Below, piece after piece: positions 759-21,460 of a DNA stretch of 64,000 nt. Origin of the DNA: an uncultured Actinomycetes bacterium (lineage in GTDB: Bacteria > Actinomycetota > Acidimicrobiia > IMCC26256 > DASPTH01); NCBI GenBank assembly GCA_963784595.1, contig CAWARX010000007.1:410-64409 (forward strand), given 5' to 3'. The notes under the pieces were generated by a model. That model was not told the origin of the DNA. It saw only the letters and a program-made list of their open reading frames with translations, and made no database searches. How positions within the stretch are numbered: position 1 is the first letter of the stretch; each line of letters opens with the position of its first letter. A program made the position numbers and the translations under genes.

Positions 759-2042
759 GTGAAGACCGAAGAACTGATCTTGGTCAGCGTGGACGATCAC
801 GTCGTCGAACCCCCCACCGTCTTCGAAAACCAGCTTCCGCGTGACCTGCTCGAGCAGGCACCGAAGGTCGTGCGTCGGGCCGACGGCTCCGACGTGTGGG
901 TGTACGAAGGGGTCGAGGTTCCGAACATCGGTCTCAACGCCGTGGCTGGTCGGTTGCCACACGAATTCGGTCTCGATCCCACCTCGTTCGAGGAGATGCG
1001 CCCCGGTTGTTACGACATCAAAGCCCGCATCGACGACATGAACGCCGACGGTGTCCTTGGGTCCATGTGCTTCCCGTCCTTCCCGCAGTTCTGCGGACAG
1101 CTCTTCAGCCGATCGCAGGACAAGGACTACGCACTGACGCTTCTCCAGGCCTACAACAACTGGCACATCGACGAATGGTGTGGCGCGTTTCCTGGGCGCT
1201 TCATCCCACTTGGGCTCCCAGTCCTGTGGGACACCGATCTCCTCGTGGCCGAGGTTCGACGGCTGGCGGAGAAGGGATGCCACGCAATCTCCTTTTCCGA
1301 GAACCCGGCGAAGCTCGGGTACCCCAGTCTTCACAGCGACCATTGGGATCCGTTCTGGCAGATCTGTGCAGACCTCGAGACGGTCGTGTGCATGCACATC
1401 GGTTCCTCATCGTCGCTCGTGGTGACGGCCGACGACGCGCCATTCGATGTGATGGCGACGCTACAGCCTCTCAACATCGTGCAGGCAGCAGCCGACCTCG
1501 TGTGGTCGCCGGTACTGCGCAAGTTTCCGAAGCTCAAGATCGCGCTCTCGGAGGGCGGGATCGGCTGGCTTCCGTACTTCCTCGACAAGGTCGACAACGT
1601 CTACCGGAAGCAGCGAGCGTGGACGGGCCAAGACTACGGCGACCGCCTCCCGAGCGATGTCTTTCGTGAGCAGATCATCACCTGTTTCATCGACGATCGA
1701 CCGGGTATCGAACTTCGCGACCAGATCGGCATCGACAACATCACATGGGAGTGCGACTACCCGCATTCCGACAGTGAGTGGCCCTATGCACCCGAGAGCG
1801 TGATGAAAATCGTCGGTGGCGTTTCCGACGAGGAGATCGACAAGATGACACATCTGAACGCGATGAGGCATTTCCACTACGACCCGTTCTCATGCTTCTC
1901 GCGCGAAGACTGCACTGTCGGGGCGCTTCGAGCGACTGCGACGCATGTCAACACCGCGCCGCGCAGCATGGTGACGCGTGAGCTGAGCGGCGACGTGCGC
2001 GCCCAACATCAGGTCGACCTCTGGGCGCCGACGGCGAACTGA
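759..2042 (+). CDS. Amidohydrolase family protein (amidohydrolase_2 type)
   Basis: ORF of 427 aa with SVDDHVVEP, CMHIG, SEGGIGW and WECDYPHSD motifs. Confidence 0.9.
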   Translation: MKTEELILVSVDDHVVEPPTVFENQLPRDLLEQAPKVVRRADGSDVWVYEGVEVPNIGLNAVAGRLPHEFGLDPTSFEEMRPGCYDIKARIDDMNADGVLGSMCFPSFPQFCGQLFSRSQDKDYALTLLQAYNNWHIDEWCGAFPGRFIPLGLPVLWDTDLLVAEVRRLAEKGCHAISFSENPAKLGYPSLHSDHWDPFWQICADLETVVCMHIGSSSSLVVTADDAPFDVMATLQPLNIVQAAADLVWSPVLRKFPKLKIALSEGGIGWLPYFLDKVDNVYRKQRAWTGQDYGDRLPSDVFREQIITCFIDDRPGIELRDQIGIDNITWECDYPHSDSEWPYAPESVMKIVGGVSDEEIDKMTHLNAMRHFHYDPFSCFSREDCTVGALRATATHVNTAPRSMVTRELSGDVRAQHQVDLWAPTAN

Positions 2043-2334
2043 GCGGTAGCGCTCCATAGACGTCGGCCGTTAGAGAAGCGTCCTGCGCCGCGACAACTGA
2101 CGAGCGGCGCCGGCTCTCGGGGAGCGGACGGTGGCGTTGGGGTTCTGCAGGGGTTGTTCACATGTCGGGCGTAGCCCAACCCACAGGAACTGTCGTCGGC
2201 TCCGCGCCGATGAAGTACAGGTATCAGAGGGTGAGCACTCGCTAGCATCAATCCGCTGATTGTTGTAGCGTGTGCTGCTACGAACTCATCCGGCACCCGG
2301 AACCGGGTTGCCGATTCGGCATGCGGGGGGACCG

Positions 2335-3548
2335 ATGCGTCGGAGCGTTTGGCGGCAGGTCTCAGCACGGCGCTGGTCGTTGCGATCACGATCTCAGGTA
2401 TGACGAGCGCCGTGGCAAGTGGCCCGAGCGCGAAGGCGACGAAGTCGCCGATCAAGATCGGTTGGATTGGCACGACATCAGGCGTCAACGCTGACTCAGG
2501 TAGTCGTCGCGCGCGGCATCCTCGCCTGGGCCAAGTGGGTCAACGCCAACGGGGGGATCGCGGGCCACCCTGTCGACCTGATCGCCAAAGACGACGCCAA
2601 TGACCCTGCGATGGCGTTGCAGGCCGTCAAGGATCTCGTAGAGAACGAAGGGATCGTCGCGTTCGTCGGGAACGCATCGAGCAGCACGACGCAGCGTTCA
2701 AGGATTACCTCGACTCGAAGAACATCCCCGACATTGGTGGCCAGGGCTACAGCTCGGCGATGGCAGGGAACGCTCTCTACTTTCCGGTGACCGCGTGGGT
2801 ATTCACCTCGGTCTGGATGGGAACCAAAACGGTGTCGCAGGTTGGAGCGAAGACCTCGGCTTGTTCTGGTGTAGTTCGAATCCGGCGTGCTCCGCCTCGG
2901 TGCCGCTCTACAAGGGTGATGCCGAGGAAGCGGGCATGACCCTCGCCTTCGACCAGAAGATCGACGATTCCGCATCCGACTTCACGGCGAACTGCCTCGC
3001 CGCGAAGTCGGCGAACGCGGACTCGATCGTGGTTGCCGCCGGCGCGTCTCAAGCGACGAGGATCATCCAGTCGGTGCACGTCAGGGGTACAACCCGACGT
3101 ACGTCGAGACTGCAGCGGGATACACGGACGTGCTCCTCAAACTGGCTAAGGCGGGCACACTCAAAAAGATGGTTGTCGCCAGTGACACCTTCCTGTGGTT
3201 CGACAACCCGGGAACGAAGAAGTCTCAGTCGTACAAGGACTTCCAGACGGCGATGAAGAAGTACGCCAAAGGCAGCTCGGTAGGGCCGCCCGCAGCATCG
3301 AGTTGGATGTCCGGCAGATGTTCGCAGCCGTGGGCAAGGCCTTCGGTGACACGGTCACGAACGAGGATGTCCTCACCGGCCTCTACGCCCTCAACGGCGA
3401 GACACTCGACGGGCTGGCTCCCCAGCCGATTACGTACACCAAGGGCGAGCCGACCCATCTCATGTGCTTCTTCCAGGCGAAGCTCAAAGGAGCGAAGCTC
3501 GTGGCGATGAATGGCGGCAAGCCCAGCTGTCAGCCGCCCAAGTCGTAG
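2335..3548 (+). CDS. Liv/branched-chain-type ABC transporter substrate-binding protein (several frameshifts)
   Basis: Signal peptide, then PIKIGWIG, WVNANGGIAGHPVDLIAKDDANDP, spread across ORFs 2349, 2419, 2795, 3130 and 3195. Confidence 0.75.
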
Positions 3549-3635
3549 CGCAGTGCGACCTGTGGCGGGCGAGGTGGGCAGCCTCTCCCGCCACAGTCGC
3601 GCTCTCGACGACCTGCGAGAGTCGGACTTGATTCG

Positions 3636-6402
3636 TTGAACGAATTTCTCCCATTCATCGTCGCTGGACTCGCGGCGGGCTCGGTGTATGGGCTCGCGGG
3701 TGTCGGCCTGGTCGTCACCTACAAGACGACCGGAGTCCTGAATTTCGGCTACGGGGCGTTCGCGACCATCGGCGCATACGTCTACTACTGGCTGTACGTC
3801 GACCAGGGGTTGGCGTGGCCGTACACGCTCGCGTTGACGGTATTGGTTGTTGGTCCGCTCCTCGGACTTCTGTACGAGCTGCTCGCCGCGAAAGCTGATC
3901 CGCGTTTCTGTGGTGCTCCAGATCGCAGCGACGGTCGGCATCATCCTCATCGTCACGGCCGTTGCCGCTCTGTGGTACGGCCGCTCTGGCGATCTGTTCC
4001 CCTCGTACTTCCCGACAACCACGATCAAGCTCGGTGGCGTGTACGTCGGATGGGATCAGATCATCGTCGCGTTAGTGGCCCTGTCGACGACGATGGTCTT
4101 GTACCTGTTCTTCAAGCGATCTCGCGCGGGTGCAGCGATGAGGGCTGTGGTCGACAATGCAGACCTGCTGGATCTCGGCGGGATCAGCCCGGTCACCGTA
4201 CGGCGATGGGCCTGTGTGATTGGTTGTTCGTTTGCGGTCCTGAGTGGCGCGCTCATCGCACCGAGTCTGAACCTCGATGCGTTCGTGCTGACGCTGCTGG
4301 TGGTCCAATCGTTCGGGGCCGCCGCCATTGGCTACTTCTCCAACCTTCCACTCACGTATACGGGGGGGTTGATGATCGGTGTGGTCGCCGCACTGGCCAC
4401 GAAGTACTCGATCGACTACACGTGGCTGACCGGACTGCCGGCCAGTGTGCCCTTCATCGCGCTCTTCCTGGTGCTCGTGTTGATGCCACGTGCGCTGCTC
4501 GTTGACCGACGCAGCACTCGGCCAAGGCCGCGGCGAGTGCGTCGGGCCGCGGCTCCGGTTCAGATCTCGCTCGGAGTCGTGCTGCTGACGGTGCTGGTGC
4601 TCGTGCCGCAGTTCGCTGGTACCCGGCTCATCACGTACACCGACGCACTCACGTATGTGGTCTTGTTTCTCTCGTTGGGTCTACTGGTGAAGACATCCGG
4701 CCAAGTGTCCCTGTGCCACGTGACGTTCGCAGCGATCGGCGCAAGCGGGTTCAGTCACCTGACCCAGGGCAGCAGCGTTCCGTGGCTGGTTGGTGTCCTC
4801 TTCGCCGGACTGGTGTGCGTGCCGGTTGGCGCGATCGTCTCGATCCCGGCGATCCGTTTGTCGGGGACCTACCTGGCACTTGCAACGCTCGGATTTGGGA
4901 TCTTCGTCGAACGCATGCTCTTCACTACCAGCTGGATGTTCGGCACCGGAATCAACAACTCGCTGTTCATGCGACGTCCGTCATTGTCCTGGCTCGACGT
5001 GAAGGGGGATGAGGGCTACTACTACGTGGTTCTCGCGTTCGTCGTGGTGATCACGGCGATCGTCATCGCGCTGCATCACAGCCGGCTGGGGCGACTCCTC
5101 CGCGCACTGGGCGATTCACCGACCGCGTTGTCGACCCAAGGGCGCGAGTATCGACACCACCGCGTGTTGGTGTTCTGCATCTCCGCGTTCATTGCCGGTG
5201 TCTCTGGCGCGCTGTACGGCTCGATCTTCCCGGAGGTCAATGGCACGACGTATTCGTCGTTCACGTCCTTGACGCTGTTCACTCTTCTCGTGATCGCCGT
5301 CGGCGGCGAGCCGTGGTACGCGTTCGTCGCAGCATTCGCGTTGGTGCTCGTGCCCTCCTACGTCAGCGGGGACAACACTTCGTTGTATCTCCAGATCCTG
5401 TTTGGGTGCTCCGCAATATTCGTTGCGGTGTCGGCGACGTGGGTCCACGATCCCGGGCGAAGGGCCATGGAAATCGTCGCTCGCCTCGGGAGGCGTCCGA
5501 CCCGCGCCGCGACGGCTTCAGAACCCAGTGAGGAGCGCACCACAAGGGTCCTAGCGCCCACGGTCGTAGCAACCGGTCGCGAGGTCGTTCCCCATTTGGG
5601 TACGCCGGGGGTCCTCGAAGAGCCGCGTCGGGGGCTCGAGATCGCTGGGGTCTCCGTCCGCTTCGGCGGGGTCGTTGCCGTCGATGCCCTGGACCTCAAG
5701 GCTCCGACTGGCCGCATCACCGCTTTGATCGGCCCGAACGGCGCGGGCAAGACGACGACCTTCAATGCGTGTTGCGGTCTACCTCGACCAACGTCCGGTC
5801 GCGTTGTGCTTCACGGCGAGGACATCACACGCCGGAGCGCTGCAGCACGAGCGCGCGCCGGCTTAGGGCGGACGTTCCAGAGGATGGATCTGTTCGACTC
5901 GCTGACCGTACGTGAGAACGCGACCATGGGACGGGAAGCGGGGATGGCGGGTGCCCGAATCTTCGGCCAAGTCGTCGCGCTGCCGAGCCAGCTTGACGAA
6001 GTCGCGCAGGCAGCCGACGCTGCACTCACCCTGTGCGGCATCCAGCACCTTGCGCAACTGCAAGCCGGCAGCCTGTCCACAGGGCAACGGCGCCTGGTTG
6101 AGCTTGCACGCTGCCTTGCTGGGGATTTCGACATGCTCCTCCTCGACGAACCGTCGTCCGGCCTCGATCATGGCGAGTCGGAATACTTCGGCCACGTGCT
6201 GACCCGCGTCGTGGCGGAGCGCGGCGTCGGAATCCTGCTCGTCGAGCACGACATGACTTTGGTGATGGAGATCTGTGACTACATCTATGTGCTCGACTTT
6301 GGCCGCCTGATTTTCGACGGCGAACCTGCAGCGGTCGCGAGTAGCCCGATCGTTCGCGCCGCGTACCTCGGCGAAGGCGAACCCATGCTCACGGGGACCT
6401 GA
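3636..6402 (+). CDS. Fused ABC transporter LivH-LivM-LivG (permease-permease-ATPase); frameshift near 3885
   Basis: MNEFLPFIVAGLAAGSVYGL...TGVLNFG, second permease SGQVSL, Walker A GPNGAGKTT, LSTGQRR, LLLDEP. Confidence 0.88.
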
Positions 6403-6408
6403 GACGTC

Positions 6409-7107
6409 GTGCTCGAGATCGAGGCGATTGACGCTGGATACGGCGACAGTCTGGTGTTGCGAAATATCAGCCTGAGCGTGCCAGATGGCGCGGTCGTTGC
6501 ACTGCTCGGTCCAAACGGTGCGGGCAAGACGACGCTCTTGCGTGCCGCGTCGGGATTGCTGGCACCTTCGGCAGGAAGGGTCGTGCTCGCCGGTGAGGAC
6601 ATGACCCACGCTCGGGCCAACCGCGTGGCACGGCGGGGCTTGTGCCACATTCCCGAAGGGCGCGGAGTCTTCCCGACACTGAGCGTGCGGGAGAACCTCG
6701 TGCTGAATGCGCCGCGAGGCCAGCACGACGAAGCGATCGCGCTCGCCGAGGAGACCTTCCCGATCCTGCGCGAGCGGATGAAGCTCCACGCCGGGAAACT
6801 CAGCGGCGGTGAGCAGCAGATGCTGGCGCTCATGCGTGCGTACATCCGCAAACCGAGCGTCGTTCTCGTCGATGAACCGTCGATGGGGCTCGCGCCAATG
6901 ATCGTCGACCAGATCTTCGAATTCCTTCACCGCCTGGTCGTGGGAGGTTCAGCACTCCTACTCGTCGAGCAGTACGTCACCCGCGCACTCGAGATGGCCG
7001 ACCACGCTGCTGTCCTGAGCCGAGGCGAAATCGTGGTGGCCGGAACTCCCGACGAGCTGCGTGACGCCGATGTGTTCCACACCTACCTGGGTGCGACGCC
7101 CGAATAG
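6409..7107 (+). CDS. ABC transporter ATP-binding protein (LivF type)
   Basis: GPNGAGKTT, IPEGRGVF, LSGGEQQM, VDEPSMGL. Confidence 0.92.
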   Translation: MLEIEAIDAGYGDSLVLRNISLSVPDGAVVALLGPNGAGKTTLLRAASGLLAPSAGRVVLAGEDMTHARANRVARRGLCHIPEGRGVFPTLSVRENLVLNAPRGQHDEAIALAEETFPILRERMKLHAGKLSGGEQQMLALMRAYIRKPSVVLVDEPSMGLAPMIVDQIFEFLHRLVVGGSALLLVEQYVTRALEMADHAAVLSRGEIVVAGTPDELRDADVFHTYLGATPE

Positions 7108-7274
7108 TGCGCCCTTGTGCGCCGGGAGGCGATGGCGCGTCGCCTTGACAGCGACTACCCAACCTATGACCGACATTCAATGGCTTCGCGGTCACCGGGG
7201 TCTGAGAACCGGACCCCGGCCCCCGCCGCGGTGTCAACCATGAACCGGAACCACACAACTCGATGCGTTCGTCG

Positions 7275-7292
7275 TTCTACATTTCTTCTACA
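7275..7292 (+). repeat. Paired TTCTACA direct repeat; candidate integrase arm-type site
   Basis: ttctaca at 7275-7281 and 7286-7292, with the same core as the pair at 7515-7535. Confidence 0.45.
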
Positions 7293-7408
7293 CCGCGGGC
7301 TGGTATCATGTGGTATAAGTGAGTACGAATCAGGACGTCATATGGGTGAAAGCCCAGTTCAGCGGTACGATCTGGTACGGAATAGGACCGTAAGAGACGC
7401 TGACCATC

Positions 7409-7456
7409 TGGCTCATAACCCGAAGGTCGAAGGTTCAAATCCTTCCCCCGCCACCA
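7409..7456 (+). tRNA. 3' fragment of tRNA-Met(CAT), initiator type; att-site remnant, not a complete tRNA
   Basis: GGCTCATAACCCGAAGGTCGAAGGTTCAAATCCTTCCCCCGCCACCA has the CAT anticodon loop, T-arm and CCA end. No matching 5' acceptor strand or D-arm lies upstream. Confidence 0.85.
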
Positions 7457-7470
7457 TCGAAGGCGCAGGT

Positions 7471-7500: not shown

Positions 7501-7514
7501 CGCGTTGTGGTGAC

Positions 7515-7541
7515 TTCTACCGGTGTTTCTACCGGGTAGAA
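7515..7541 (+). repeat. TTCTACCGG direct repeats plus an inverted GGTAGAA; candidate integrase arm-type sites
   Basis: ttctaccgg at 7515-7523 and 7527-7535; ggtagaa at 7535-7541. Confidence 0.55.
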
Positions 7542-8080
7542 GCCGGCAGAGCGGCACACGTGTCGAGGATCCCGGCGAACGTCCGCGCGGCTTCTTCTTG
7601 CATGCCGGGGATCACGTGCTGATAGGTCGCCATCGTGAATCCGGGGGTCGCGTGACCGAGGCGCTCGCTGACGACCTTGATGGGTACGCCGTCCTTGAGC
7701 AGGAGGGTGGCGTGGGTGCGTCGGAGGTCGTGGAACCGAATCGGCGGCTGGCCGGAGCGGCGCACCAGTTATTTTGAACGTGTCGGACAGGAGGTGCGGA
7801 TGTGTTGGTTCGCCATTCGGGCGACAGAACACATGCCCCGCGGGGTTGTCGCGGTCGAAGTCGGGGTCTTCGGCTTGGCGATGGTCGCGCCAGCGGTGCA
7901 GCACGTTGACAGTTCTCGAGTCGAGGTTGATCGATCGTCGCGCCGATCGAGATTGCCGCCGCGTTTCGTGCAGCTCGTATCCGACCGAGATCAGCGATCG
8001 GGTGACCGAGAGAGATGCGTTGTCGAAGTCGACGTCACTCCAGTGGAGGCCGAGCACCTCGCCTCGGCGCATGCCCGTGG
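7529..8080 (-). pseudogene. Tyrosine integrase, C-terminal catalytic half (begins at TGMRRGE)
   Basis: TGMRRGEVLGLHW...HDLRRTHATLLL...VVSERLGH...MATYQH in ORFs 7470-8150 and 7529-7765. No N-terminal domain upstream. Confidence 0.88.
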
Positions 8081-8165
8081 TTGGGATCGAGAAGACTGCC
8101 GAACGGAAGGTCCGGCGGGAGGTGCGACGCGGACGCTCCTCGTGGCACACGTGGGCGTCGACGTG

Positions 8166-11110
8166 TCAGTTCTGGCGCTTGCCTGTCCCAGTGCCGAGGT
8201 ACGCGGCGGCGAGGCGCTCGGCGTCGGCCTCCTCGCGGGGGCCCATCCACACGACCCGTCCGAGCTCCATGAAGGCGATGATGTCGGCGACCTTCATGAC
8301 CTCGCTCGCCTTCTCCTCCACGAGCAGGATCGCGGTGCCGAGCCGCGTAGTTCGCGCAACGCGTCGATCACGACCGCCGCGGCCAGCGGAGCCAGGCCGA
8401 GGGTCGGCTCGTCGGCGACGAGCACGACCGGCGGGTCGGCGAGGGCGGGCGCGAGCGACAGCATCTGCTGCTCGCCGCCGGACAGCAGTCCGGCCACCTG
8501 CTTGCGCCGCTCCTCGAGGATCGGGAACCGCTCGTAGGTCTTCTGGCGCAAGGCGGGGTCGCGCAGGAGCACCTGGAGGTTCTCCTCCACGGTGAGCCCG
8601 GGGAAGATGCCGCGCGCTTCGGGCACGAGCAGGAGCCCCTTGCGGACGCGGCCGAACGCCGACAGCGCCGACACGTCCTCGCCCGCGATGCAGCACCCGA
8701 CCCGAGAGCGCCGGCACCATGCCCGCGGCGACGCCGCACAACGTGCTCTTGCCGGCTCCGTTCGCTCCCAGCAGCGCGACGACCTGGCCGGGCTCCACCG
8801 CGACGCTCACCCCGTGCAGCACCTCGACGTCGCCGTAGCCCGCCCTGACCCCCTCGAGCAGGATGACCGGCTCGACCCCGTGGGGTCGGTGCGGTGGCGC
8901 CGACGCGTCTCCAGCACCTCGGCTTCCGGCACCGCCGGCGCGGCCTCGCGTCGCCTCGCCTTCGTGCAGCGGCGCGCTCTCGGCCGCGGCGATGCGCGCG
9001 TCGTGCTGCTTCGCCCGACGCTTCTCGAGCCGGTCGGAGCCGACCATCGCGAGGATCCCATCGGGGTTCTTGGCCAGGTTGATCGCGGCCAGGCCGAACA
9101 GGATCGACGTGAAGTACGAGCTGGTGATGAGCGGCGGCGACGAAGTGCGGCATCCAGGAGAACGAGGCGATCTGCTTCCAATCACGGGCGCGGCGGCATA
9201 GGAGAGCCCTGCCAGCAGGGCGCCGCCCGGCCGGCGCACGCCGAACGTGACCGCCACCGCGATCCAGATCAGCCCGATCACGGGCGGGACGCTGTCCTTG
9301 GTGATCGAGAACGAGGTGAGGCCGTAGCATGGCGCCGCCGAAGCCCGCGATGCCGGCCGACAGCGCAAACAGCGCGACCTGGGCCTTCGCCGGCGAGATG
9401 CCCGACGCCTGCGCGGCGACCGACGAGCTGCGCACCGCGAGCATCGCCCGCCCCGACGCCGACCGTTGCAGGTTGTAGACGAGCAGGGTGAGGATCCCGA
9501 ACATGATCAGGAGCGCGCAGACCAGTTCCGATGACTTCGAGAAGTCGAACTTGTGGATGCCGAACGGGTCGAACGTCGGCGGCCGGAACGAGTAGCCGAA
9601 GCTCCCTGCACTGATCGTGTCGTTCTGGAACACGATGAAGTACATGACCCACGCGAGCGCGAACGTCGCGAGCGCGAGCGCGAGCGTCCCCATTCGGCGC
9701 ACGGGAAAGGCGATGAGCGCACCGAGCACGCCGGCCACCGCCGCGCCGAGCAGGCAGGCGACGAGGAAGTTCATCTGCCCGTGGTGCAGCACGAGCGGGA
9801 TGTCGAAGCTCCACTTCGACCAGGGAGGGGGACGCTGCGCGTCGGAGGTCTGCAGCGCCCAGCCGGCCATGAAGCCGCCGGCCGTGACGAACGTGGCCTG
9901 GGCCAGGCTCACCATGCCGCCGATGCCCGTGACCACCACGAACGAGAGGAACACGATCGCGAGCGCGAGGCCGGGAGCGAGGATGTTCGCCCGCACGTAC
10001 GTGGGGTTGTGCGGCCACGAGAAGGCGCCCAGCGTGTAGAGCACGAGGACCAGGGTGAGGATCGCCCAGGGCAGCTTCCGCCTCCACCCCGGAAGCCCTT
10101 CGCGATGGTCGGGCGCGGGCTTCTCGTCCGAGATCGAGCCCGCGGCACGGCCCCGCTCACGGCCGATGACGAAGAGGGCGATGAGCAGCACCAGGTATGG
10201 CACCGCGGCGTCGAGGCCCGAGAGCTGGCTCAGGAAGTTCGGGAGCAGCTGGGTCTTGTAGCCGGCGACGAGGTTCTGGAGGACGCCGAGGGCCAGGCCG
10301 GCCGCGAACGCGAGCGGGATCGAGCGCATCCCCGCGAGCGCCACCGCCGCGATCGACGCAAGCACGACGAAGAGGAACGTGCTGTCGCTCAGCTGGAAGA
10401 GCGGAGCGATGAGCACACCGCCGAGGCCGGCGAGCGTCATCGAGAGCATCCACGCGATCGCTCGAGGTGCGACTCGGGCTGATCCCGCGCATCGCGGCGA
10501 GGGACTCGCGGTCGACCTGGGCCCGCATCTCGAGGCCCACCCGCGTGCGCCGGATCACCACGTAGAGCAAGCCCGCGACGATCGCCGCGACGATGAAGAC
10601 CGCGAGCTGGTCGGAGTTCAGCACCACGCGGTCGAGCCCGAGCCAGCTCAGGCGGTACACGTGCGACGGGGTCGGGCCGACTCCCGGTGGGACGAACCCC
10701 ACGCCGCCGCCGTAGTCCCCGAGCTTCGCGAGGTTGAGGCCGAGCCAGTCGACCGCCACCGCGTCGACGAGCCACTGCACGAGATTCGGCAGGGCGATGA
10801 GCAGACCGATGGTCCCGACGATGCGGGCGTACACCGGGGCGCTGCTGAGCCGGCCGAGCACGATGCGGTTGAGCAAGTACCCGAGCAGGGGCGCGAAGAA
10901 GACGACGGTGAGGATCAGCGACGGGACGATCGGGATGTGCTGCCCGGTGTTGAGCTGGAAGTAGAAGTACGCGCAGGCGAACGCGACCGCTCCGTGGGCG
11001 AAGTTGAATACACCCGACGTCTGGTACGTGAGCACCAGCCCCGACGCCATGATCGAGTAGATCGCACCGGTCACCATGCCGGAGATGAACAGGTTCAGGA
11101 ACTTCTGCAC
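8166..11110 (-). CDS. Fused ABC transporter LivH-LivM-LivF (permease-permease-ATPase); several frameshifts
   Basis: MQKFLNLFISGMVTGAIY...SGVFNFAHGA; GGMVSLAQA; AGYGDVEVLHGV...GANGAGKST; LSGGEQQM; ADEPTLGL. Confidence 0.82.
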
Positions 11111-11204
11111 GGACTACCTCAGTGGACGAACCCGGGCGTGGCGACGCTGGACGGCCGGGCCCGAGGGACCGGCCGTCTCGATCGTCTCGGAGGAACGGTG
11201 ACGC

Positions 11205-12491
11205 CTACTTCACACCCTTCGGGTACTTGACCTGCCGATACTTGCCGGTGTTCCCGACCTGCTTGAGGAGGTCGTAACAGGCGAACGGCGCAGTGATGGC
11301 CCACTTGGTGCCGTCACTGGTCACGAGCTCTCCGCACGGTGCTCCCGCCTTGAAGCTCGCCGGGTAGTAGGTCGGTCCCACGACGTCGGGGATCTGGTAT
11401 TTGAAGTCGCGCGGCCGCCTTCTGGAACGCCTCGGGCGTCAGGTTCTTGCCGACCTTCTTGAGGATCTGCACGAACATGTCGGCCGAGAAGTACCCGGCG
11501 AGCGCCGGCTGGCCGATGTCGGCCGTCGCGATGCCCGCGTTGTTCAGGGTCTGGACCACCTTCTGCATGTTCGGCGCCGTCGACTCCGGCGTCGGCGAAC
11601 TGCGTGAACGCGGACCACGTGTTCGCCAGCTTGGTCAGCTGCGGGGCGTACGACACCGCGTTGGTCTGGATGCCCTTGTAGCCGGCCTGGGTGAGCGCCT
11701 TGCCGAGGCCGAACACGTTGTTCTGTCCGACGACCAGGAAGACCACGTCGGGCGGCTGGTCGTTGTCGGACGTCATGATGGCCTGCACGTACGGCGAGTA
11801 GTCGGTGACAGTCGCCGGCAGCGGCGGCATCGAGGCCTGCTGGTAGACCACCTTCATGCCCACGGCCTTGGCGGTCGCCGAGATCACCTCGACCCCCTGC
11901 TTGCCCGAGTCGTTGTTCTCGGCGATCACTGCGGCGGTCTTGCCCCTCGCGCCGCCCTTGCCCTGGCTCTTGAGCTGCTGGTCGACCAGTTCACCCCAGG
12001 TGTTGCCCGGGTAGGTGGGCGGGTTCGGCACGAGGCAGCCGGTGAACCCGAACACGTACTTGTTCGACGGATCGCAGAACGCGGGCGCGATGCCCCAGCC
12101 GATCGTGGGCACCTTCTGCTGGTTGAAGTACGCGCCGGCCTGGAGCGTCGCCGTGACCACGGGCACGACGCCGAACACGCCCTGCTGCTCGACCAGCCCA
12201 CGGCCCTCCGACAGGTCCGCGTCGGGCGTCGTCTTGTCGTCGGAGAAGCCGACGTAGTCGATCTTGCGACCGCCCGGGATCTCGCCGTTCTGGTTCGCCT
12301 CGTCGAAGCGCGCCCTTCGCGGCATGCCCCGCGGCCGAGTAGAACGCGGCGTACCCGAGACCGCCGACCTTGATCGTGGAGCTCGTCACGCCGCGCACGC
12401 TGCTCTGCGCGCCTGCGGAGCCGATCGATCCGACGGTCGACGCGGCCAGCGCCGCGGCGAGCGCCGCCACGACGAACTTGGTTCGTTTCAC
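11205..12491 (-). CDS. Liv-type ABC substrate-binding protein (frameshifted)
   Basis: Signal peptide MKRTKFVVAALAAALAA, VRGVTSSTIKVGG, ARFDEANQNGEIPGGRKI; reconstructed stop near 11205. Confidence 0.8.
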
Positions 12492-12616
12492 TTCATCCCC
12501 CTTGGTTGTTGGTGATGGTGGTGCGCGCGCCCGACCCTGCCGGACCGGCCACGACGCAGGCGTCGGCGAGGCGGCGATCGGGCCTGGTCACGGAGCGGCT
12601 CGATCCACCAGCCGGC

Positions 12617-13866
12617 TCAAGAGATGTTGCCGACCGGCTTGCCGATCCGGTCCAGGGCAGGGGTTACGGCGTCGTCGGGGAGCTCACCCGGGGCAAGAGG
12701 GGTCGCAACCTCGCCGACGCGGGGGCCGATCCGATCGGCGATCGGCACGAGGCGATCGAGATCGAAGCCGTAGACGCGCGCGCGGCGTTCACGCCCAGCA
12801 TCCGGGCCACTTCGTCGGGGTCGACGCCGGCGAACGTGTGCCGCAGGGCCTGTGACGTGTGCGGGAACGTCCCCTCGATGTGCGGATAGTCGCTTCCCCA
12901 CATGATCGTGTCGATGCCGGTCTCGGCGCGGACCGAGCAGTCGACGGGACCCATGAAGCTCGCACCGAGGAAGCACTGCCGAGCCCAGTACTCGCTCGGC
13001 TTCAGTGACAGCGGGCGCGCAACCTCACCGCCGAACCGCTCCTCGATGCTGCCCGGCACGTTGCGCATCCGGTCGACGGCCCAGTCGAGGCCCGCCAAGA
13101 GCGCGGGCACCCAGGAGCTGCCCTGCTCGGTCATGACGAAGGTCAGGTCGGGGTGCCGCTCGAACACTCCGCCGAGGATGAACCGGACGAGGGGTCGCTG
13201 CGCGTACCAGCCGTACTCCACGAACAGCAGCGCCGGGGTCGCCGGGTACGGACCCAGGTCGGGAGCACCACTGCCGCCGTGGACGTTGACCGGCAGGCCG
13301 AGTTCCGCGCACGCCGCCCACAGTGGCTCGTACACGGGGGCATGCAACGGGGGGAGGTGCGAGTCGGGGGCGACGTTCGGGACCATCACGCCGCCGAACA
13401 GGCCGACGTCCTTCACCCACCGTGCCTCGGCCACCGCGTCGTCGACGTCGTTGAGCAGGAGCTGCGCGACGCCGGCGCGTCGGCCCGGCAGGTCGGCGCA
13501 GAAGTCGGCCAGCCATCGGTTGTGGGCCCGGATGCCGGCCCACCGCAGCTCGTACTCGTCGGGTCGGCAGTCGGGCAGCGTGAGGGTGCCGCTCGGGAAG
13601 AACGGCGGGATCGTGTTGGGGTACACGACTTCGCCGACGATGCCGTCGGCCTCGAAGTCCGCTTGGCGGATCGCGGGTTCGAAGTTGCGCCGATACTCGA
13701 ACGTGTCCGTCTCGACGAGGTCCTCGTACGGGTTGACGAACTCGGCCTCCCACGCATCGAACTGCTCGAGGTACCGAGCCTCCAGGTACTCGCGGTAGGT
13801 GTGGATCGGTGCGCCGGCGTGACAGTCGGACGAGATGACGACGTAGCGGTCATTGGGGTTCGGCAC
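12617..13866 (-). CDS. Amidohydrolase family protein (amidohydrolase_2 type); C-terminal frameshift
   Basis: ISSDCHAG, VNVHGG, TEQGSSW, MWGSDYPHIEGT. Confidence 0.88.
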
Positions 13867-13934
13867 GAGCCACCCTCCGCTTTGGTCAGAGCGAAGTCGC
13901 TCAGGAACCCGAACATTAATATATGCTTTGAACT

Positions 13935-15068
13935 ATGTCGAGCACCGGACTTCAGGAGGCGCTCAGCCTCTCGGATGTTCGACGCCACCATCTCGCGGTC
14001 GTGCTCGGCCGGTTGCGCCGCCACGGACCGCGGTCGAGAGCGGACCTGGCCCGGCAGACCGGGCTCACCAAGGCCACGGTGTCCACCCTCGTGGCCGACC
14101 TGATGGCGCGCGACCTCGTGGCCGAGATCGCTGCACAGTCCGGATCGGTGGGTCGCCCGGCGACGTTGGTCGCCGCAACAGGGATGTCGGTGCTGACGCT
14201 GGGGATGCAGATCGAGGTCGACCACGTCTCGGCCTGCGCCGCTGACCTCACGGGCCGGGTTGTGAGGTCCGAGCGCCGGTATCGGGACAACCGAGCCTGC
14301 AGCCCCGACGCAGTGTTGGGACGGCTGGCCGAGGTGACCGCCAGCGTGCTCGACGCTGTAGCCGGACGAGACGTCGAGGTCGTCGGCGCGTGCGTGGCGG
14401 TGCCCGGCTTGGTGGAGCCCGTGAGTGGGGAGATCCTGGTTGCTCCCAACCTGGCATGGTCCCGGTTGGAGCTCAGCGGTCTGTCGGGCGTCCTCGGTCT
14501 TCTTCCCGGCGTCGATGTCGTGGTCGACAACGAGGCGAATCTGTGTGCTCTGGCGGAGCTCGAGCGCTGGGATCAGGAGGGACCCCCTTCGTTCGTCTAC
14601 GTCTCGGGTGGCGTTGGAGTGGGCGCGGGCATCGTCGTGGAGGGTCACCTGATGCGCGGTGTGCACGGCTTCGGCGGCGAGATCGGCCACCTCGTCGTCG
14701 AGCCGGAGGGGCGGCGGTGTGCCTGTGGTGCCCGCGGCTGTCTGGAGACGATCGTGGGTGCCGAACGCGTGGCGTCGACCACGGTCCGAGCCCGGGCGCT
14801 GAGCCGAGCCCTCACGGGTGTCGTCCACCTTCTCGACCCCGCGGCCGTCATCTTGGGCGGTACGTTCTCCGGCGACGAGAGGCTGGCGGAGCTCGTGGCT
14901 GAGCAGCTCCACACGGAGACTCTCGCGGGTCGCTGGCGACCTTGCATCGTTCGGACGTCCTCACTCGGCGTCGATGCAGCACTCCTCGGAGCCGCCCGAC
15001 GCGCCCTCGAGGGCGTCCTCGCCGATCCCACCCACGTCGCGAGTCGCGACGGCGTGCCCTCGCCGTGA
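13935..15068 (+). CDS. ROK family transcriptional regulator (XylR-like)
   Basis: N-terminal HTH SRADLARQTGLTKATVS; VDNEAN; GVGAG; GEIGH...CACGARGCLE. Confidence 0.9.
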   Translation: MSSTGLQEALSLSDVRRHHLAVVLGRLRRHGPRSRADLARQTGLTKATVSTLVADLMARDLVAEIAAQSGSVGRPATLVAATGMSVLTLGMQIEVDHVSACAADLTGRVVRSERRYRDNRACSPDAVLGRLAEVTASVLDAVAGRDVEVVGACVAVPGLVEPVSGEILVAPNLAWSRLELSGLSGVLGLLPGVDVVVDNEANLCALAELERWDQEGPPSFVYVSGGVGVGAGIVVEGHLMRGVHGFGGEIGHLVVEPEGRRCACGARGCLETIVGAERVASTTVRARALSRALTGVVHLLDPAAVILGGTFSGDERLAELVAEQLHTETLAGRWRPCIVRTSSLGVDAALLGAARRALEGVLADPTHVASRDGVPSP

Positions 15069-15185
15069 GGGAACCTCGATGACCGAGGATCTCGGTCCTG
15101 CCCCGAGCATGGCTTCCCCTACGACCCGCGGGCACTCGGCTCGCAACGGTCGACCCGGCCAAGCCCAACTGAACGGAGCCGAGGG

Positions 15186-17549
15186 ATGGATCCGCTGACT
15201 GATCGGCCGCCGACCCGGTACCTCGAACGCCTCGAGGTCGACCGCCTCCGGCTGTCGACGACCACGATCCGAGAGATGGGTGAGGGGTTCGTGGTCCTGG
15301 ACGTCGCCTGGACATCGGACACCTCTGCGACGCGGCTGCCCGATGGCGTCGCCCTCGCCGGGAAGCGCGTCGAGGACGGCTCGCTCACGGTGCGCGTCGA
15401 GGCGGTCGGCCCCCGAACCTTCCGGTACCGGTTCGCACTCGGTGCCGATGTGCCAGCGGGCGGCACACCGATGCTGGCGACCGAAGTGCGAGTCGACCCT
15501 GCGGCCCGTGTCGATCGGATCGGCGCCGGCGTGACCATGACCACCGGCGGGGCATCCGTCGAGGTGGAGGTGCCCGAGGTCGGTGGGCCGACCCTGCGGT
15601 TCCGACGCGCAGACGGACGCATGGTCGGAACTGTGGGAGGCAGCGCCTCGAACCTGCTGGACGAGTGGGCGTGGGACTCGTTCCCCACGGGCATCTGCCG
15701 CACACCCGTGCCGGGACACCGACTGGCGACCGAGGTGTTCTCGATCCGCGATGACGAGTGCGTCTACGGGTTCGGGGAGCAGTTCGGTCGACTCGACAAG
15801 GTCGGCCAGACAATCGACCTCGAACATGGCAGAAGCGATGGGCACCGTCACCCCGCGGGCCTACAAGAACATGCCGTTCTTCGGGTCACCACCGCGGGGC
15901 TACGGCGTGTTCTGCCAACCACGACGCCAGGCTCACCGCCTGGGTCGGCAGCCGCATCGTCGCCCGACTCCAGGTGGCGGTGGACGACGACTGGTTCGAC
16001 AGTCTTCGTGTTCGTCGGCGACGTTCGTCAGGTGCTCCACGCCTACACCGACCTGACCGGCCGGCCGCACGTGCCGCCGGACTGGTCATTCGGGTTCTGG
16101 CAGTCGAAGATCTCCTACTCCTCGGCCGTCGAGACGATCGAGGTCGTCCGAGCGGATGCGCGGCCGACGACCTGCCCTTCGACGTACTGCACCTCGACAC
16201 CCATTGGTTCCGCCGACGACTGGCGTCTGCGACCTCGAGTTCGACCCCGACCGGTTCCCCGACCCCGCCGGGTACCTCGACGCAATGGCGGCGCTGGGCG
16301 TCAAGGTGTCGCTGTGGCAGTTGCCTTACATCCCCTCGGGCTCGGCGCTGTTCGACGACCTCGACGGCGGTCGACGGGTTCGTGCTCCGACGCCGACGGC
16401 AGCCTCTACGACGTCGGGCTGTGCTATGCGCCCGACTGGGAGGGCGGACCGATCGGATGCATCGACTTCACCAACCCCGATGCCGTCGCGGTCTACCAGC
16501 AGTGGCTCGGCACGCTGTTCGATCTCGGCGCCCGGGCCATCAAGGTCGACTTCGGCGAACAGGCACCCCTCGACGGCATCTACCACGACGGCACCCCCGG
16601 CCACCGGATGCACAACCGGTACCCGCTGCTCTACAACCGAGCCGTCGCCGAAGCGACCCATGACGCACACCGGCGAGTGGATCATCTGGGCACGGTCGGC
16701 CTTGGCGGGCTCCCAGCGGTACCCACTGCACTGGGGCGGCGACTCCACGGCGAGGTGGGACAACCTCTTCGCCGAACGTCGGCGGCGGCCTGTCCCTGGG
16801 CCTGTGCGGGTTCCCGTTCTGGAGCAGGACATCGGTGGCTTCCTCGGCGAGCCGGAAGACGACCTCCTCGTCCGTTGGCTCCAGGCCGGGCTGTTCCTCT
16901 CCCACAGCCGCATCCACGGATTCGGCAACCGCGAGCTCTACGGCGGGGCGTCACGACCGACACGCTCGGCGCCGTCCGACCTGCTCCACCTGCGGTATCG
17001 GCTCCTGCCGTACCTGACTCGGCGAGGCTCACCGTGCCGCCGCGGCCGGGCGTTCCCCTGGCTCGGCCTCTCGTCGTCGACCACCCCGACGACCCCACCA
17101 CCTGGCACCTCTCGGACCAGTGGCTCCTCGGCGACGACCTGCTCGTGGCCCCGGTCGCGACCGCCGACGGGGATCGGCGCGTCTACGTGCCCGAAGGTGA
17201 CTGGGTCCACTGGTTCACCGGCGAGCACCACCACGGGCCCACCTGGGTCACCACCCACAGCCCGCTCGACCACTTCCCGCTCTACCAGCGGGCGGCGTCC
17301 CTCGTGCCGCTCGGCCCAGTCATGGCCCATGTCGGCGCCCGACCCACCGAGCTGCTCACCCTGCGCGCGGGTGTCCCGACCGCCACGTCGGACTGGCGAG
17401 GCGTGGCGCGAGTCGACGGCGCAGCCGTGACGATCACTACCACCCGACCCGATCCCACCGTCGTCGTCGAAGGACTCCCGCCGCGCGTCGATGTCCGCGT
17501 GGTCGACGGGTCCGGGGAATCCGTCGACCGCCCGATCCGACGCATCTGA
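15186..17549 (+). CDS. Glycoside hydrolase family 31, alpha-xylosidase (YicI-like); many frameshifts
   Basis: YGFGEQF, PPDWSFGFWQS, KVDFGE (GH31 nucleophile motif), HWGGDS, QWLLGDDLLVAP. Confidence 0.82.
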   Translation: MDPLTDRPPTRYLERLEVDRLRLSTTTIREMGEGFVVLDVAWTSDTSATRLPDGVALAGKRVEDGSLTVRVEAVGPRTFRYRFALGADVPAGGTPMLATEVRVDPAARVDRIGAGVTMTTGGASVEVEVPEVGGPTLRFRRADGRMVGTVGGSASNLLDEWAWDSFPTGICRTPVPGHRLATEVFSIRDDECVYGFGEQFGRLDKVGQTIDLEHGRSDGHRHPAGLQEHAVLRVTTAGLRRVLPTTTPGSPPGSAAASSPDSRWRWTTTGSTVFVFVGDVRQVLHAYTDLTGRPHVPPDWSFGFWQSKISYSSAVETIEVVRADARPTTCPSTYCTSTPIGSADDWRLRPRVRPRPVPRPRRVPRRNGGAGRQGVAVAVALHPLGLGAVRRPRRRSTGSCSDADGSLYDVGLCYAPDWEGGPIGCIDFTNPDAVAVYQQWLGTLFDLGARAIKVDFGEQAPLDGIYHDGTPGHRMHNRYPLLYNRAVAEATHDAHRRVDHLGTVGLGGLPAVPTALGRRLHGEVGQPLRRTSAAACPWACAGSRSGAGHRWLPRRAGRRPPRPLAPGRAVPLPQPHPRIRQPRALRRGVTTDTLGAVRPAPPAVSAPAVPDSARLTVPPRPGVPLARPLVVDHPDDPTTWHLSDQWLLGDDLLVAPVATADGDRRVYVPEGDWVHWFTGEHHHGPTWVTTHSPLDHFPLYQRAASLVPLGPVMAHVGARPTELLTLRAGVPTATSDWRGVARVDGAAVTITTTRPDPTVVVEGLPPRVDVRVVDGSGESVDRPIRRI

Positions 17550-17657
17550 GGATCGTTTCCCGCGCGCTTGCCGGAGGTGCGATGTCGGTGGGTGCTCCAC
17601 ACGCTTGGGATTCCGTCATTCGGACAGAATCTGTGCCCGACGAACAGGAAGGCGGCC

Positions 17658-18853
17658 ATGAGCAGCACCCTCAGCCCCACGCCGGCTGATCGCTTCACAT
17701 TCGGTCTGTGGACCGTCGGCTGGCAGGCGCGCGATCCCTTCGGCGACGCGACCCGGCCGCCGCTCGACCCCGTCGAGTCCGTTCACCGGCTTGCGGAGCT
17801 CGGGGCCTCCGGGGTGACGTTCCACGACGACGACGTCGTGCCGTTCGGCGTGGACAAAGCCCAGCGGGATTGTCAGCTGACACGGTTCCGTGCTGCGCTC
17901 GACGAGACCGGGCTCTCAGTGCCGATGGTCACCACCAACCTGTTCACCCACCCGGTGTTCAAGGAGGGCGCGTTCACCGCGAACGACCGGGAGGTACGCC
18001 GATACTCGATCCGTAAGGTGATGCGGAACCTTGACCTCGCCGCCGAGCTCGGCGCCCAGACATACGTGTTCTGGGGTGGTCGCGAGGGCTCCGAGGTCGA
18101 CCTCGCAAAGGACGCCCGCGCCGCGCTCGATCGCTACAAGGAGGCGATCGACACCCTCGCCCAGTACGTGAAGGACCGCCGCTACGCGGTCCGCTTCGCC
18201 CTGGAGCCGAAGCCGAACGAGCCACGCGGCGACATCTTCCTGCCGACCGTCGGCCACGTCCTCGCGTTCATCTCCACCCTCGAACACGGCGACATCGTCG
18301 GGGTCAACCCGGAGACCGGTCACGAGCAGATGTCGAACCTCAACTTCGTGCACGGCGTCGCGCAGGCCCTCTGGCACGGGAAGCTCTTCCACATCGACCT
18401 CAACGGTCAGCACGGACCGAAGTTCGACCAGGACCTCGTCTTCGGTCATGGCGGCCTGCTGAGCGCCTTCGCGCTGGTGGACCTGCTCGAGTTCGGCGGT
18501 CCCGACGGCGGTCCGGCCTACGACGGCCCCCGCCACTTCGACTACAAGCCGCTGCGCACCGAAGCGGCGGACGGGGTGTGGGCCTCCGCCGCAGCGAACA
18601 TGCGCACCTACCTGCTGTTGAAGGAGCGCGCCGCTGCCTTCCGCGCCGACCCCGAGGTGCAGGAGGCCCTCGCCGACGCGGGCGTGCCCGACCTGTCGGT
18701 GCCGACGCTGGCCGGCGGCGAGACCTACGAGGATCTGCTCGCCGACGAGACCGCCTTCGAGCGCTTCGACGCCGACGCGAAAAAGGAGCGTGGTCACATG
18801 GCGCCACCCGGATCGACCAGCTGGCCGTCGAGCACCTGCTGGGAGCTCGGTAG
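17658..18853 (+). CDS. xylA: Xylose isomerase (Streptomyces-type class I); frameshift near C-terminus
   Basis: [10 protein letters not shown]...[52 protein letters not shown]. Confidence 0.95.
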
Positions 18854-20259
18854 GTGCCCCTCGTCGTCGGGGTCGACTCGTCGACCTCGGCCTGCAAGGT
18901 CGAGGTCCGCGACCTCGACACCGGTCGGCTCCTCGGTTCGGGTCGAGCCGCGCATCCGCCGACGACCCCGCCATGCAGCGAGCAGGATCCCCACGCCTGG
19001 TGGACGGCGTTCGAGGCCGCCGCGTCCCAGGCCGATCTGGCCCGGAACCGGCCCGCGGGCATCGCCGTCGCCGCGCAGCAGCACGGCCTGGTCACCCTCG
19101 ACGCCGCCGGCACGGTGATCCGCCCGGCGAAGCTCTGGAACGACACGGAGTCTGCCGACGACGCGGAGGCCCTCGTCGCCGAGCTCGGCGCCACCGGGTG
19201 GGCCGAGGCGTGCGGCAGCGTCCCGGTCGGCGAAGCTTCGCCATCACGAAGCTCCGCTGGCTGCATCGGTGCGAGCCGGACTCGTTCGCGCGGATCTTCC
19301 GAATCGGGCTGCCGCACGATTGGCTGACCCACCGGCTCACCGGCCGGTGGTCGACCGACCGGGGTGACGCGTCCGGCACCGGATGGTGGTCGCCGGCGCA
19401 GGGCACCTACCGGACCGATCTCCTCGACCTCGTCGACGGTAGCGTCGACTGGTCGAGCGCTCTGCCCGACGTGCTCGGACCCTCGGAAGCGGCAGGCGAG
19501 TGGGAGCAGGTCGGCGGTGCACTGGTCGCCGCGGGCACGGGCGACAACATGGCCGCATCGCTCGGCCTGGGCCTGAGGGCCGGCGACCTTTCGCTCAGCC
19601 TCGGGACGAGCGGCACTGCGTGCACGGTCGCCGACACGCCCATGGCGGACGCCACCGGTTCCGTCGCCGGCTTCGCCGACGCAACGGGCCGGTTCCTGCC
19701 ACTCGTGTGCACGCTCAACGCCACCAAGGTGACCGACACCGTCGCCCGGCTGCTCGGGATCACTGCCGCAGAGCTCGACCAGCTCGCGCTCGCCGCCGAA
19801 CCCGGAGCGGGAGGGCTCACGTTGGTGCCACACCTCGACGGCGAGCGGACCCCGAACCGCCCGCACGCGACGGGCTCCCTTGTGGGGTTACGATCCGATG
19901 CCCGTCACGCGACCAGCTCGCACGCGCCGCATTCGAAGGTGTCGTGTGCAACCTGCTCGCCGGAGCCGACCGGCTCGCCGTCAGCGACGGACAGGTGGTG
20001 CTGGTCGGCGGTGGTGCGCACAGCGGTGCCTATCGCCAGATCGTTGCCGACCTCGTCGGACGGCCCGTCCGGGTGTCCGAGGCGGGCGAGCTGGTCGCCG
20101 TAGGTGCCGCGGTGCAGGCCGCAGTCGCGCTGACCGGGGCGTCATTCGACGACGTAGCCACCGCCTGGAACCTCCGGGCGGGACGCACGATCGACCCGGA
20201 CCCGGCCGTGGATGCAGCCGCGATACCGTGGTCGGTACGCCGAGGCGGCGGGCACCTGA
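18854..20259 (+). CDS. xylB: Xylulokinase (FGGY kinase); frameshifted
   Basis: [47 protein letters not shown]; immediately after xylA. Confidence 0.88.
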
Positions 20260-20309
20260 CTTGCGGTGACGCGATCACGTCCCCCGCGTCGAGTGGGTCC
20301 TGTCCGCAG

Positions 20310-20592
20310 CGCATGTTGGCGGTGACCCAGAACGCGGCGTAGTAGCGATGCTCCCTGGTCGAGGCCAGAAGCTCGTGCAGCTGCGCGGCGTTCCACACCC
20401 GCGACGTGTTGCTCGACAACGGACGCCGCTTCGGCGCATGCGCGATCCTCGCCGGATTGGCGAGCAACCAGCCTCGGTGCATGGCGTCGTCGAGTGCTCG
20501 GCGCAGGATCATGTGGATCTCGACGACGGTCTTGTTGTGAAGCCCGCCCGTGCCGTCAGCGTGTCCCTCGTCGAGGAGTTCGGCGTAGAGCC
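20310..20592 (-). pseudogene. Tyrosine integrase internal fragment (core-binding region, ending just before TGMRRGE)
   Basis: RLYAELLDEGHADGTGGLHNKTVVEIHMILRRALDDAMHRGWLLANPA...VWNAAQL...RYYAAFWVTAN. Confidence 0.8.
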
Positions 20593-21460
20593 GGAGACGA
20601 CCTTGATGGGTACGCCCGCGGCGACGAGGAGCGAAGCGTGGGTGTGGCGGAGGTCGTGGAGTCGGATGCGGGGGAGCGCGAGTTTGCGTACTTGGCGGTC
20701 GAAGAGTTGGTACAGCGACTCGGCGTGCACCGGCTTGCCTGCCGCGTTGGTGAAGATTGGGTCAGCGAGCTGAACGCTGTGGCCGTCTCGGCGTTGGCGG
20801 CGCTTCCAACGGGCGAGCACAGCTTCGGTGTCGGCGTCGAGGTCGATGCAGCGGCGGCTGGAGCGGGTCTTGACCGGGACTTCGATCGAGTGGCCTCCGA
20901 CGACTTGGCGGCTGCGGGCGATGGAGAGCCGATGCGTGGTCCGGTTCCAGTCGCCCCAGCGGAGCCCCGCGATCTCGCCGCGACGCATGCCGGTGGTCGC
21001 GGCGAGGTGCAGCGCCGGGTACAGACGAAGATGCTTGATTGCCGCGAGGAACGCGGCGAGCTGGTCGGCGGTCCAGCACTCCGGTCCGGAGCGCTCGCGG
21101 GCGCGGGGCCTTGGGGGCTGTGCGCTGTGGCGACGTTCGCGGGGACGAGGTGCTGGCGGACGGCGTCATTGAGCGACGCCCGGATGATGACGTGCACGTC
21201 GTAGACGGTCTTAGGTGCGAGCCCGCAGCCGCTCGCGTCCGCCGGTGGCGAGAAGCTCTGCGTAGAAGCCGTCGAGATGCTCGGCGTGCAGCGAACGCAG
21301 CGGCATGGACCCGAGCGCGGGGTCGATGTAGTTGTCGATCATCCACGCATACCGGTGCGCGGTTGTCGGCTGCAGGCGTTGACGGCGTCGGGGCATCCAC
21401 CGCTCGGTGAGGTAGCGGCCGAGCGTCAGTTGCTGTGCGACGACAACGTGCTCGGCTGCT
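20592..21460 (-). pseudogene. Second tyrosine integrase, truncated before the LGH/catalytic Tyr and lacking a clear N-terminus
   Basis: LTLGRYLTERW...LQPTTAHRY...; MRRGEIAGLRW; HDLRHTHASLLVAAGVPIKVVS, then an abrupt switch. Confidence 0.82.

Follow-up and report, generated by a model that had tools for sequence, protein, structure and literature searches.

A tyrosine integrase gene split by a foreign 12.2 kb metabolic block at a tRNA-Met hotspot in an uncultured actinomycete

We examined a 64,000-nucleotide stretch of DNA from an uncultured actinomycete (hereafter the window), which occupies positions 410-64409 of contig C7 in genome G000 (G000:C7:410-64409; 4.06 Mb in 9 contigs, 70% GC, 71% complete). 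The locus of interest holds two minus-strand pieces of a tyrosine integrase gene, which we call integrase A, at 7529-8084 and 20314-20593. Between them lies a 12.2 kb block of transport and sugar-metabolism genes; to their left is a remnant of a tRNA-Met gene, and to their right a second, truncated integrase (integrase B). An initial annotation of the window had proposed that a single integrase was split by this cargo. The proposal proved correct: the two pieces are adjoining parts of one gene, an intact homologue of which is found in a relative, G007.

One integrase gene in two pieces

The downstream, catalytic piece of integrase A (7529..8084, minus strand) runs from TGMRRGE to the stop codon, with a change of frame near 7765, and was recognized by translation and by its matches to the Phage_integrase family PF00589. 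The translation of minus-strand 7470-8090 reads SIPT-TGMRRGEVLGLHW... and shifts frame near 7765 to ...IRFHDLRRTH...LGH...ATYQH... before the stop. With TGMRRGE, HDLRRTH, LGH and ATYQH, which we take to be the box I arginine, the HxxR motif, the later histidine and the tyrosine of tyrosine recombinases, the catalytic residues are present. Both frames of this piece exceed the PF00589 cut-off of 27.1 bits (29.6 bits for 7766-8081 and 39.3 bits for 7529-7765), and the G007 homologue scores 99.6 bits.

The upstream piece (20314..20593, minus strand) comprises about 93 codons, LYAELL...WVTAN, and was identified by translation and by its DNA match to G007; the translation of minus-strand 20315-20611 reads ...LYAELLDEG...RYYAAFWVTAN. 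The initial annotation had described a fragment at 20310-20592. It was right that this is part of an integrase ending in WVTAN, but the true extent is 20314-20593, and the piece does not begin at the start of the gene. It begins at LYAELL, and the first ~120 codons present in G007 are absent, with no close copy elsewhere in the G000 genome. The upstream piece itself has no Pfam match; in the G007 integrase PF14659 covers residues 135-186, and the counterpart of that region lies largely inside the missing ~120 codons. Instead of forming a continuous gene with an N-terminal SAM-like core-binding domain, integrase A is divided by 12.2 kb.

That the pieces belong together is shown by their alignment to the gene in G007, a genome of the same genus. 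By BLASTN, window 7407-8084 matches G007:C4 12057-11381 at 84.8% identity over 682 columns, and window 20314-20593 matches G007:C4 11386-11106 at 82.2% over 281 columns; the two alignments abut with a 6-base overlap. The G007 gene is unbroken (...WVTANTGMRRGEVLGL...) and reads WVTAN-TGMRRGE across the break point. This uninterrupted homologue lies beside a full tRNA-Met. A homologue from another genus (G017:C4) shares 74% DNA identity with the downstream piece, and its alignment also ends at window position 8084. Of the 20 loci outside G000 that best match the upstream piece, 19 have a match to the downstream piece starting 0-15 bases past the upstream match; at the exception, G014:C2, the tail is matched by DNA only. 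Among the integrase loci examined, these 20 and others, we found no other split integrase.

Tandem islands with related integrases at the tRNA are common in this family, several of whose genomes carry multiple tRNA-Met remnants, and short-homology deletions do occur at the locus (at 20594-20598). Such observations would suit a history in which the block is the ordinary body of an island and the integrase pieces are what separate deletions left of two different tandem copies. However, two deletions would have had to end at the same nucleotide of a gene of ~1.2 kb while leaving a 5-base overlap. The pieces also lie at similar distances from the G007 gene (82% and 85% identity) and resemble each other in GC content (66.4% upstream and 64.7% downstream, with 69.7% in the insert). 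We regard this history as highly improbable.

The 12.2 kb insert and its junctions

The insert (8085..20313) is 12.2 kb long and single-copy in the G000 genome, and its genes were assigned from open reading frames and Pfam matches. On the minus strand it carries two ABC ATPases, permeases and a binding protein (8166-12491), followed by an Amidohydro_2 protein (12664-13866). On the plus strand are a ROK regulator (13935-15068), a GH31 glycosidase (15186-17549), a xylose isomerase (xylA, about 17658-18853) and a xylulokinase-type FGGY kinase (xylB, 18854 to about 20257). The non-coding ends measure 80 and 56 bases.

The initial annotation had seen neither a recombinase nor terminal inverted repeats in this block, and our Pfam and inverted-repeat scans agree. 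Among 93 stop-to-stop frames of at least 80 amino acids over 8000-20400, none matched a recombinase or transposase Pfam family other than the integrase pieces themselves, and PF00589 had no match within the insert. The 25 longest of 130 inverted pairs included no terminal inverted-repeat pair, and comparison of the ends by eye revealed none. The insert lacks two features of a DNA transposon, terminal inverted repeats and a transposase gene. Nor does the block in G000 have attachment repeats at its ends, as a cis-mobilizable element (CIME) should.

The two junctions share short sequences. GTTGG on the plus strand (CCAAC in the sense of the gene) stands at 8080..8084 and again at 20315..20319, and GCGCATG at 8067-8073 and 20309-20315, positions that the initial annotation had given correctly. 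Per position, GTTGG occurs in the window at a frequency of 0.0013 and GCGCAT at 0.0003; the presence of both at the junctions is not due to chance. Read in the sense of the gene, the upstream piece ends in CCAAC and passes directly into the insert, which starts with ATGCGC, while the end of the insert leads to a second CCAAC, one extra base, and then the TGMRRGE codons, which themselves contain ATGCGC. The join had been described as having neither overlap nor gap. This holds for the protein, which reads through WVTAN-TGMRRGE, but the DNA shows a 5-base duplication and one extra base. The junction is either an exact 5-base direct duplication or a 17-base duplication of which one copy has lost six bases, and CCAAC at both junctions has the form of a target-site duplication.

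Three further candidates at the junctions were tried and set aside. The minus-strand translation of 8086-8165, from the junction to the stop codon of the ABC ATPase (...HEERPRRTSRRTFRSAVFSI), weakly recalls the integrase C-terminus (...QEEAARTFAGILD). The idea that these 80 bases are a relic of the integrase 3' end was dropped as suggestive at most, since 104 and 212 shuffles in 2000 reached the scores; against the end of the G007 gene (the 104), the likeness in DNA is not significant. The 115 bases past the right junction and the 119 past the left were likewise rejected as a continuation of the integrase, with scores reached in 132, 167 and 345 of 1000 shuffles. Finally, compared by eye with the 3' end and the anticodon stem-loop of the tRNA, the junction bears no convincing likeness to a pseudo-attachment site.

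Could the assembler have made these junctions? A chimeric path in a strain-mixed, noisy long-read metagenome assembly would give the same picture while leaving the integrase intact in the cells. The genome is incomplete, the junctions have no read confirmation, and two contigs end beside the locus in an unmerged overlap. There, the starts of contigs C2 and C7 form a 7.15 kb dovetail at 98.6% identity (65 mismatches and 31 gap openings), in which C2:1-7139 is the reverse complement of C7:1-7156 (window 1-7156). This dovetail joins the two contigs and gauges the noise of the assembly, although strain variation at the hotspot may also contribute to the differences. Against an artefact, the junctions share only 5-6 bases, far below what an assembler needs to join sequences, and it would take an extraordinary coincidence for two false joins to fall on the same nucleotide of one gene, agree in orientation and leave a clean duplication. 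Moreover, the block is single-copy in the genome, and a short contig from one sequencing run (X1) is identical to the window across 7433-7724, from the tRNA remnant into the integrase. On these internal grounds we judge misassembly unlikely.

Given the noise of the assembly, we attach no weight to single frameshifts, whether in the integrase pieces, GH31, xylB or the ABC genes; in genomes assembled from noisy long-read metagenomes, a frameshift is not proof of gene decay. A search of sequencing runs found six, the best of them with 0.14 of the sampled words, and four were compared with the window. Short contigs of run X1 equal the window except for single-base indels at five places within 15821-15967, and those of three soil and rhizosphere runs show single-base indels at five or six places in this part of GH31. 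The GH31 frame of the window is broken at 15821-15967; in G008, GH31 is a single open frame of 805 amino acids.

Stacked tRNA-Met islands and the circulation of the block

The partial tRNA-Met at 7410..7458 (plus strand) consists of the last 47 nucleotides of the tRNA plus 2 more. It forms a 49-base perfect repeat of C2:12837-12789 and is not a gene, neither ARAGORN nor Rfam calling a tRNA at 7410-7458. The true tRNA-Met lies on contig C2 (c12791-12867) and contains the 49-base repeat (C2:12789-12837). The remnant is the attachment-site repeat at which one island, E1, ends and an older, integrase-bearing island starts. With a full tRNA-Met at the near end and the 49-base repeat at the far end, E1 has the arrangement of a tRNA-targeted island, and the same layout is seen in G007 and G008.

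E1 measures ~13.45 kb and is made up of window 1-7399 and G000:C2:7140-12790. Its right-hand part (1..7399) has a GC content of 0.62-0.63, compared with 0.70 for the genome, and C2:1-12790 and C7:1-7800 are both at ~63%. Pfam matches in the right-hand part identify an Amidohydro_2 protein (693-2039), a branched-chain-type ABC permease/ATPase (3838-6399) and a further ATPase (6403-7104). The cargo of E1 as a whole comprises binding proteins, a P450, a GMC oxidoreductase, a TetR regulator, Amidohydro_2 and an ABC transporter, with no PF00589 match. E1 is 98% identical to a segment in another species (G011:C8:859-7981) and 87-88% identical to G008 and G001. Both E1 and the island in G008 have kept their two repeats and hold no integrase, which is the layout of a CIME.

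The initial annotation had supposed that the cargo entered the island's own integrase and thereby immobilized the element. This is not supported, as almost nothing of the island to which integrase A belonged is left. Loss of an integrase alone does not amount to immobility either, since islands that lack an integrase and are bounded by tRNA-Met repeats sit at the hotspot in both G000 and G008.

Between the tRNA remnant and the integrase stop, a hairpin (7472-7499) is followed by two direct copies of TTCTACCGG (plus strand, 7515-7523 and 7527-7535), read directly from the window. The alignment shows the 7472-7535 region to be colinear with G007, G008, G025 and G029, and the TTCTACCGG copies are possible arm-type sites for the integrase.

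On the other side of the insert, the upstream piece of integrase A is joined directly to integrase B (20596..about 21550, minus strand). Integrase B matches PF00589 and PF14659, shares 37-40% protein identity with integrase A, and is cut after ...GVPIKVVS, leaving it without the C-terminal LGH...Y part. The fusion, at 20594-20598, is a short-homology junction, which we interpret as a deletion between sites sharing two bases. Next to the fusion, 20599-20619 has a 21-base identity with 7672-7692. Recombination at this identity was rejected as the origin of the fusion, the downstream piece being G007-like on both its sides, and we read the identity as conservation. Farther to the right, 22063-25010 encodes an MFS transporter, a metallo-beta-lactamase-fold/rhodanese protein, ArsR-type regulators and a rhodanese. 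An arsenic-type cluster at 30723-35650 comprises an SBF/ACR3-like carrier, a glyoxalase-fold protein, two LMWPc arsenate-reductase-like proteins and a MIP channel. The two groups of genes are probably the body of the oldest island.

The insert had been presented as metabolic cargo, and comparison with 32 relatives confirms that it is foreign, mobile DNA. Window 8099-17577 is 95.9% identical to G008:C1 and window 13293-18561 is 95.6% identical to G001:C4, two other species, whereas synteny with G008 on the C2 side of the tRNA runs at only 71-80%, a range that gives the background divergence. All other matches to the block in these relatives are at or below 74%. The block occupies three different contexts: inside the integrase in G000, beside tRNA-Met in G008, and as a truncated 5.3 kb piece in G001. 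Its right ends also differ, at 17577 (G008), 18561 (G001) and 20313 (G000). The G008 form probably lost its right part, because the adjacency of GH31 and xylA is common to G000 and G001.

The G008 copy of the block begins 78-90 bases beyond a full tRNA-Met and extends to 28 bases past GH31. There it is followed by a nucleotidyltransferase/HEPN-like pair and then by a partial tRNA-Met, and no integrase lies within the 40 kb examined. The spacer ahead of the block is not related to the integrase or to the tail of xylB, its scores being reached by 264, 127 and 208 of 300 shuffles. A 58-base imperfect direct repeat brackets the block (L025 13577-13632 and L026 3122-3180; G008:C1), with a score of 45 that none of 1000 shuffles reached. 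It resembles the stretch that, in this island family, runs from hairpin to integrase stop (16 of 2000 shuffles reached the score in the comparison with G007), and a CTTCT..ACGG-type motif occurs in it twice, recalling the TTCTACCGG pair at 7515-7535. These motifs are possibly arm sites for an integrase. In G001:C4 the 5.3 kb piece (L027 13440-18707) is cut inside Amidohydro_2 and xylA and sits amid unrelated genes, with no tRNA remnant or integrase nearby; its left flank is syntenic with G000:C6:302523-305420. Two islands have a toxin-antitoxin-like pair at their far end, TacA-like plus GNAT in G007 (L017 632-1453, G007:C4) and the nucleotidyltransferase plus HEPN-like pair in G008 (L026 3257-4475, G008:C1).

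This distribution bears on whether the block could be a discrete, non-autonomous unit moved in trans, through either a transposase with 5-base target duplications or a recombinase that uses a secondary site. The exact 5-base direct duplication would fit such a unit, as would ends just outside complete genes, a left end nearly equal in G000 and G008, and the repeat that brackets the G008 block. However, the block has no terminal inverted repeats and no internal transposase or recombinase, its right end is different in all three carriers, and in G001 both ends of the copy fall within genes. In exact-pattern scans the left end turned up, among species-representative genomes, in G008 alone, and in the metagenome collection neither the left nor the right end did; no further split integrase was seen. 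We retain this explanation as a minority reading on account of the tidy intergenic ends and the duplication, and consider it rather unlikely. In a related version, the 9.5-12 kb block would be an integrase-less mobile module that passes between species of this soil genus, put beside or inside the integrases of tRNA-Met islands through machinery supplied in trans, leaving a 5-base duplication in G000 and a 58-base island-end repeat in G008. Such a module would represent an unrecognized way for islands to gain cargo, but we think its existence improbable.

Origin of the split and relation to known systems

The locus is a tRNA-Met integration hotspot where islands have been stacked in tandem and have decayed, and the split is probably the product of a one-off, short-homology illegitimate insertion. 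The insertion would have struck an integrase within this array, and the island to which that integrase belonged would have lost most of its content afterwards. From left to right, the array comprises the true tRNA-Met (on C2), the 13.45 kb E1, the 49-base remnant, the older island's integrase, and a still older, truncated integrase with transporter, sulfur and arsenic genes beyond it. A single break would have interrupted the older island's integrase between an Asn and a Thr codon, just ahead of the catalytic-arginine motif, through insertion of the 12.2 kb uptake and xylose/glycoside block that circulates in the genus. A later, second illegitimate deletion would then have taken away the ~120 first codons of this integrase, along with what remained of its island and the 3' part of the neighbouring integrase.

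The initial annotation had suggested a microhomology-associated route for the insertion. The short shared sequence at the junctions is there, whereas the route and the order of events are matters that we infer. The join may have formed through the 5 bases of identity (CCAAC), by a single illegitimate crossover with a circular copy or by end-joining at a staggered break, with host recombination or end-joining presumably supplying the enzymes and no dedicated transposase or site-specific site taking part. The genome contains a Ku gene (187 bits), so end-joining is available. We favour a one-off illegitimate event because neither a recombinase, a transposase nor a terminal inverted repeat was found in the block, its right end varies among the three carriers, and no other integrase locus is split; the neighbouring fusion, also a short-homology join, and the Ku gene are further reasons.

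Several observations weigh against this account. The insert both starts and stops within a short intergenic tail just past a complete gene, which would be rare for random breakage and hints at selection or at a defined unit. A plain crossover at CCAAC predicts a junction at exactly 8085, and it does not provide for the one extra base. The homology to G008 begins within ~14 bases of the 8085 junction, and the G008 sequence just to the left of that start is closer to the last integrase codons than to the block. G008 may therefore be a deletion derivative of a split-integrase arrangement like that of G000, or the block may have a defined left terminus. If G008 is a deletion derivative, the composite island crossed species after the integrase was cut, which would itself contradict the idea of immobilization. 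The level of error in the self-overlap (65 mismatches and 31 gap openings per 7.1 kb) and a completeness of 71% also count here, and the short contigs from four runs include none that bridges 8085, 20313 or 20596, which is evidence neither for nor against the junctions.

If the insertion was a one-off event of this kind, the locus offers a clean, datable case of hotspot remodelling, in which an island integrase was cut by incoming cargo with 5 shared bases. Because two other species carry this cargo at ~96% identity, each in a different context, we conclude that metabolic operons circulate via tRNA-Met hotspots without an integrase of their own, here among uncultured soil actinomycetes. The locus looks like a one-off, messy DNA join among decaying islands rather than a new kind of mobile element.

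Comparison with known systems places its parts in familiar company. The Tn3, Tn7 and Mu groups make 5-base target duplications, and a 5-base direct duplication likewise flanks the insert, although the insert, unlike these elements, has no terminal inverted repeats or transposase. pSAM2 and SLP1 are integrative elements of actinomycetes that reside at tRNA genes; the 3' end of their tyrosine integrase faces the 3' end of the tRNA, and the attachment site is a copy of the 3' part of the tRNA. Integrase A is likewise directed with its 3' end toward that of the tRNA, and the attachment site copies the 3' part of the tRNA. In contrast to pSAM2 and SLP1, Pfam searches revealed no replication or transfer genes beside either integrase (over 20.5-46 kb and in the G007 element).

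The array also resembles the tandem accretion of integrative elements and CIMEs treated in section 2.3 of PMC5704250. As that section describes, islands are stacked at the 3' end of the target gene with partial copies of the target between them, the newer element lies nearest the intact tRNA, and decayed members without integration genes keep both attachment repeats, here E1 and the G008 island. Relative to the same section, the array in G000 differs in that no conjugation or mobilization genes were seen anywhere in it, and the G000 block differs from CIMEs in being bounded by two integrase halves rather than by attachment repeats. The tycheposons and tRNA-linked islands of Prochlorococcus (bioRxiv 10.1101/2020.12.28.424599) belong to another phylum and integrase lineage, and the replication/helicase module was not seen here; the part of that account considered here describes no integrase cut by its own cargo. 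What our locus has in common with the systems in that account is nutrient-uptake cargo adjoining tRNA genes, successive integrations that shift older elements inward, and fragmented integrases and extra partial tRNAs that persist as remnants.

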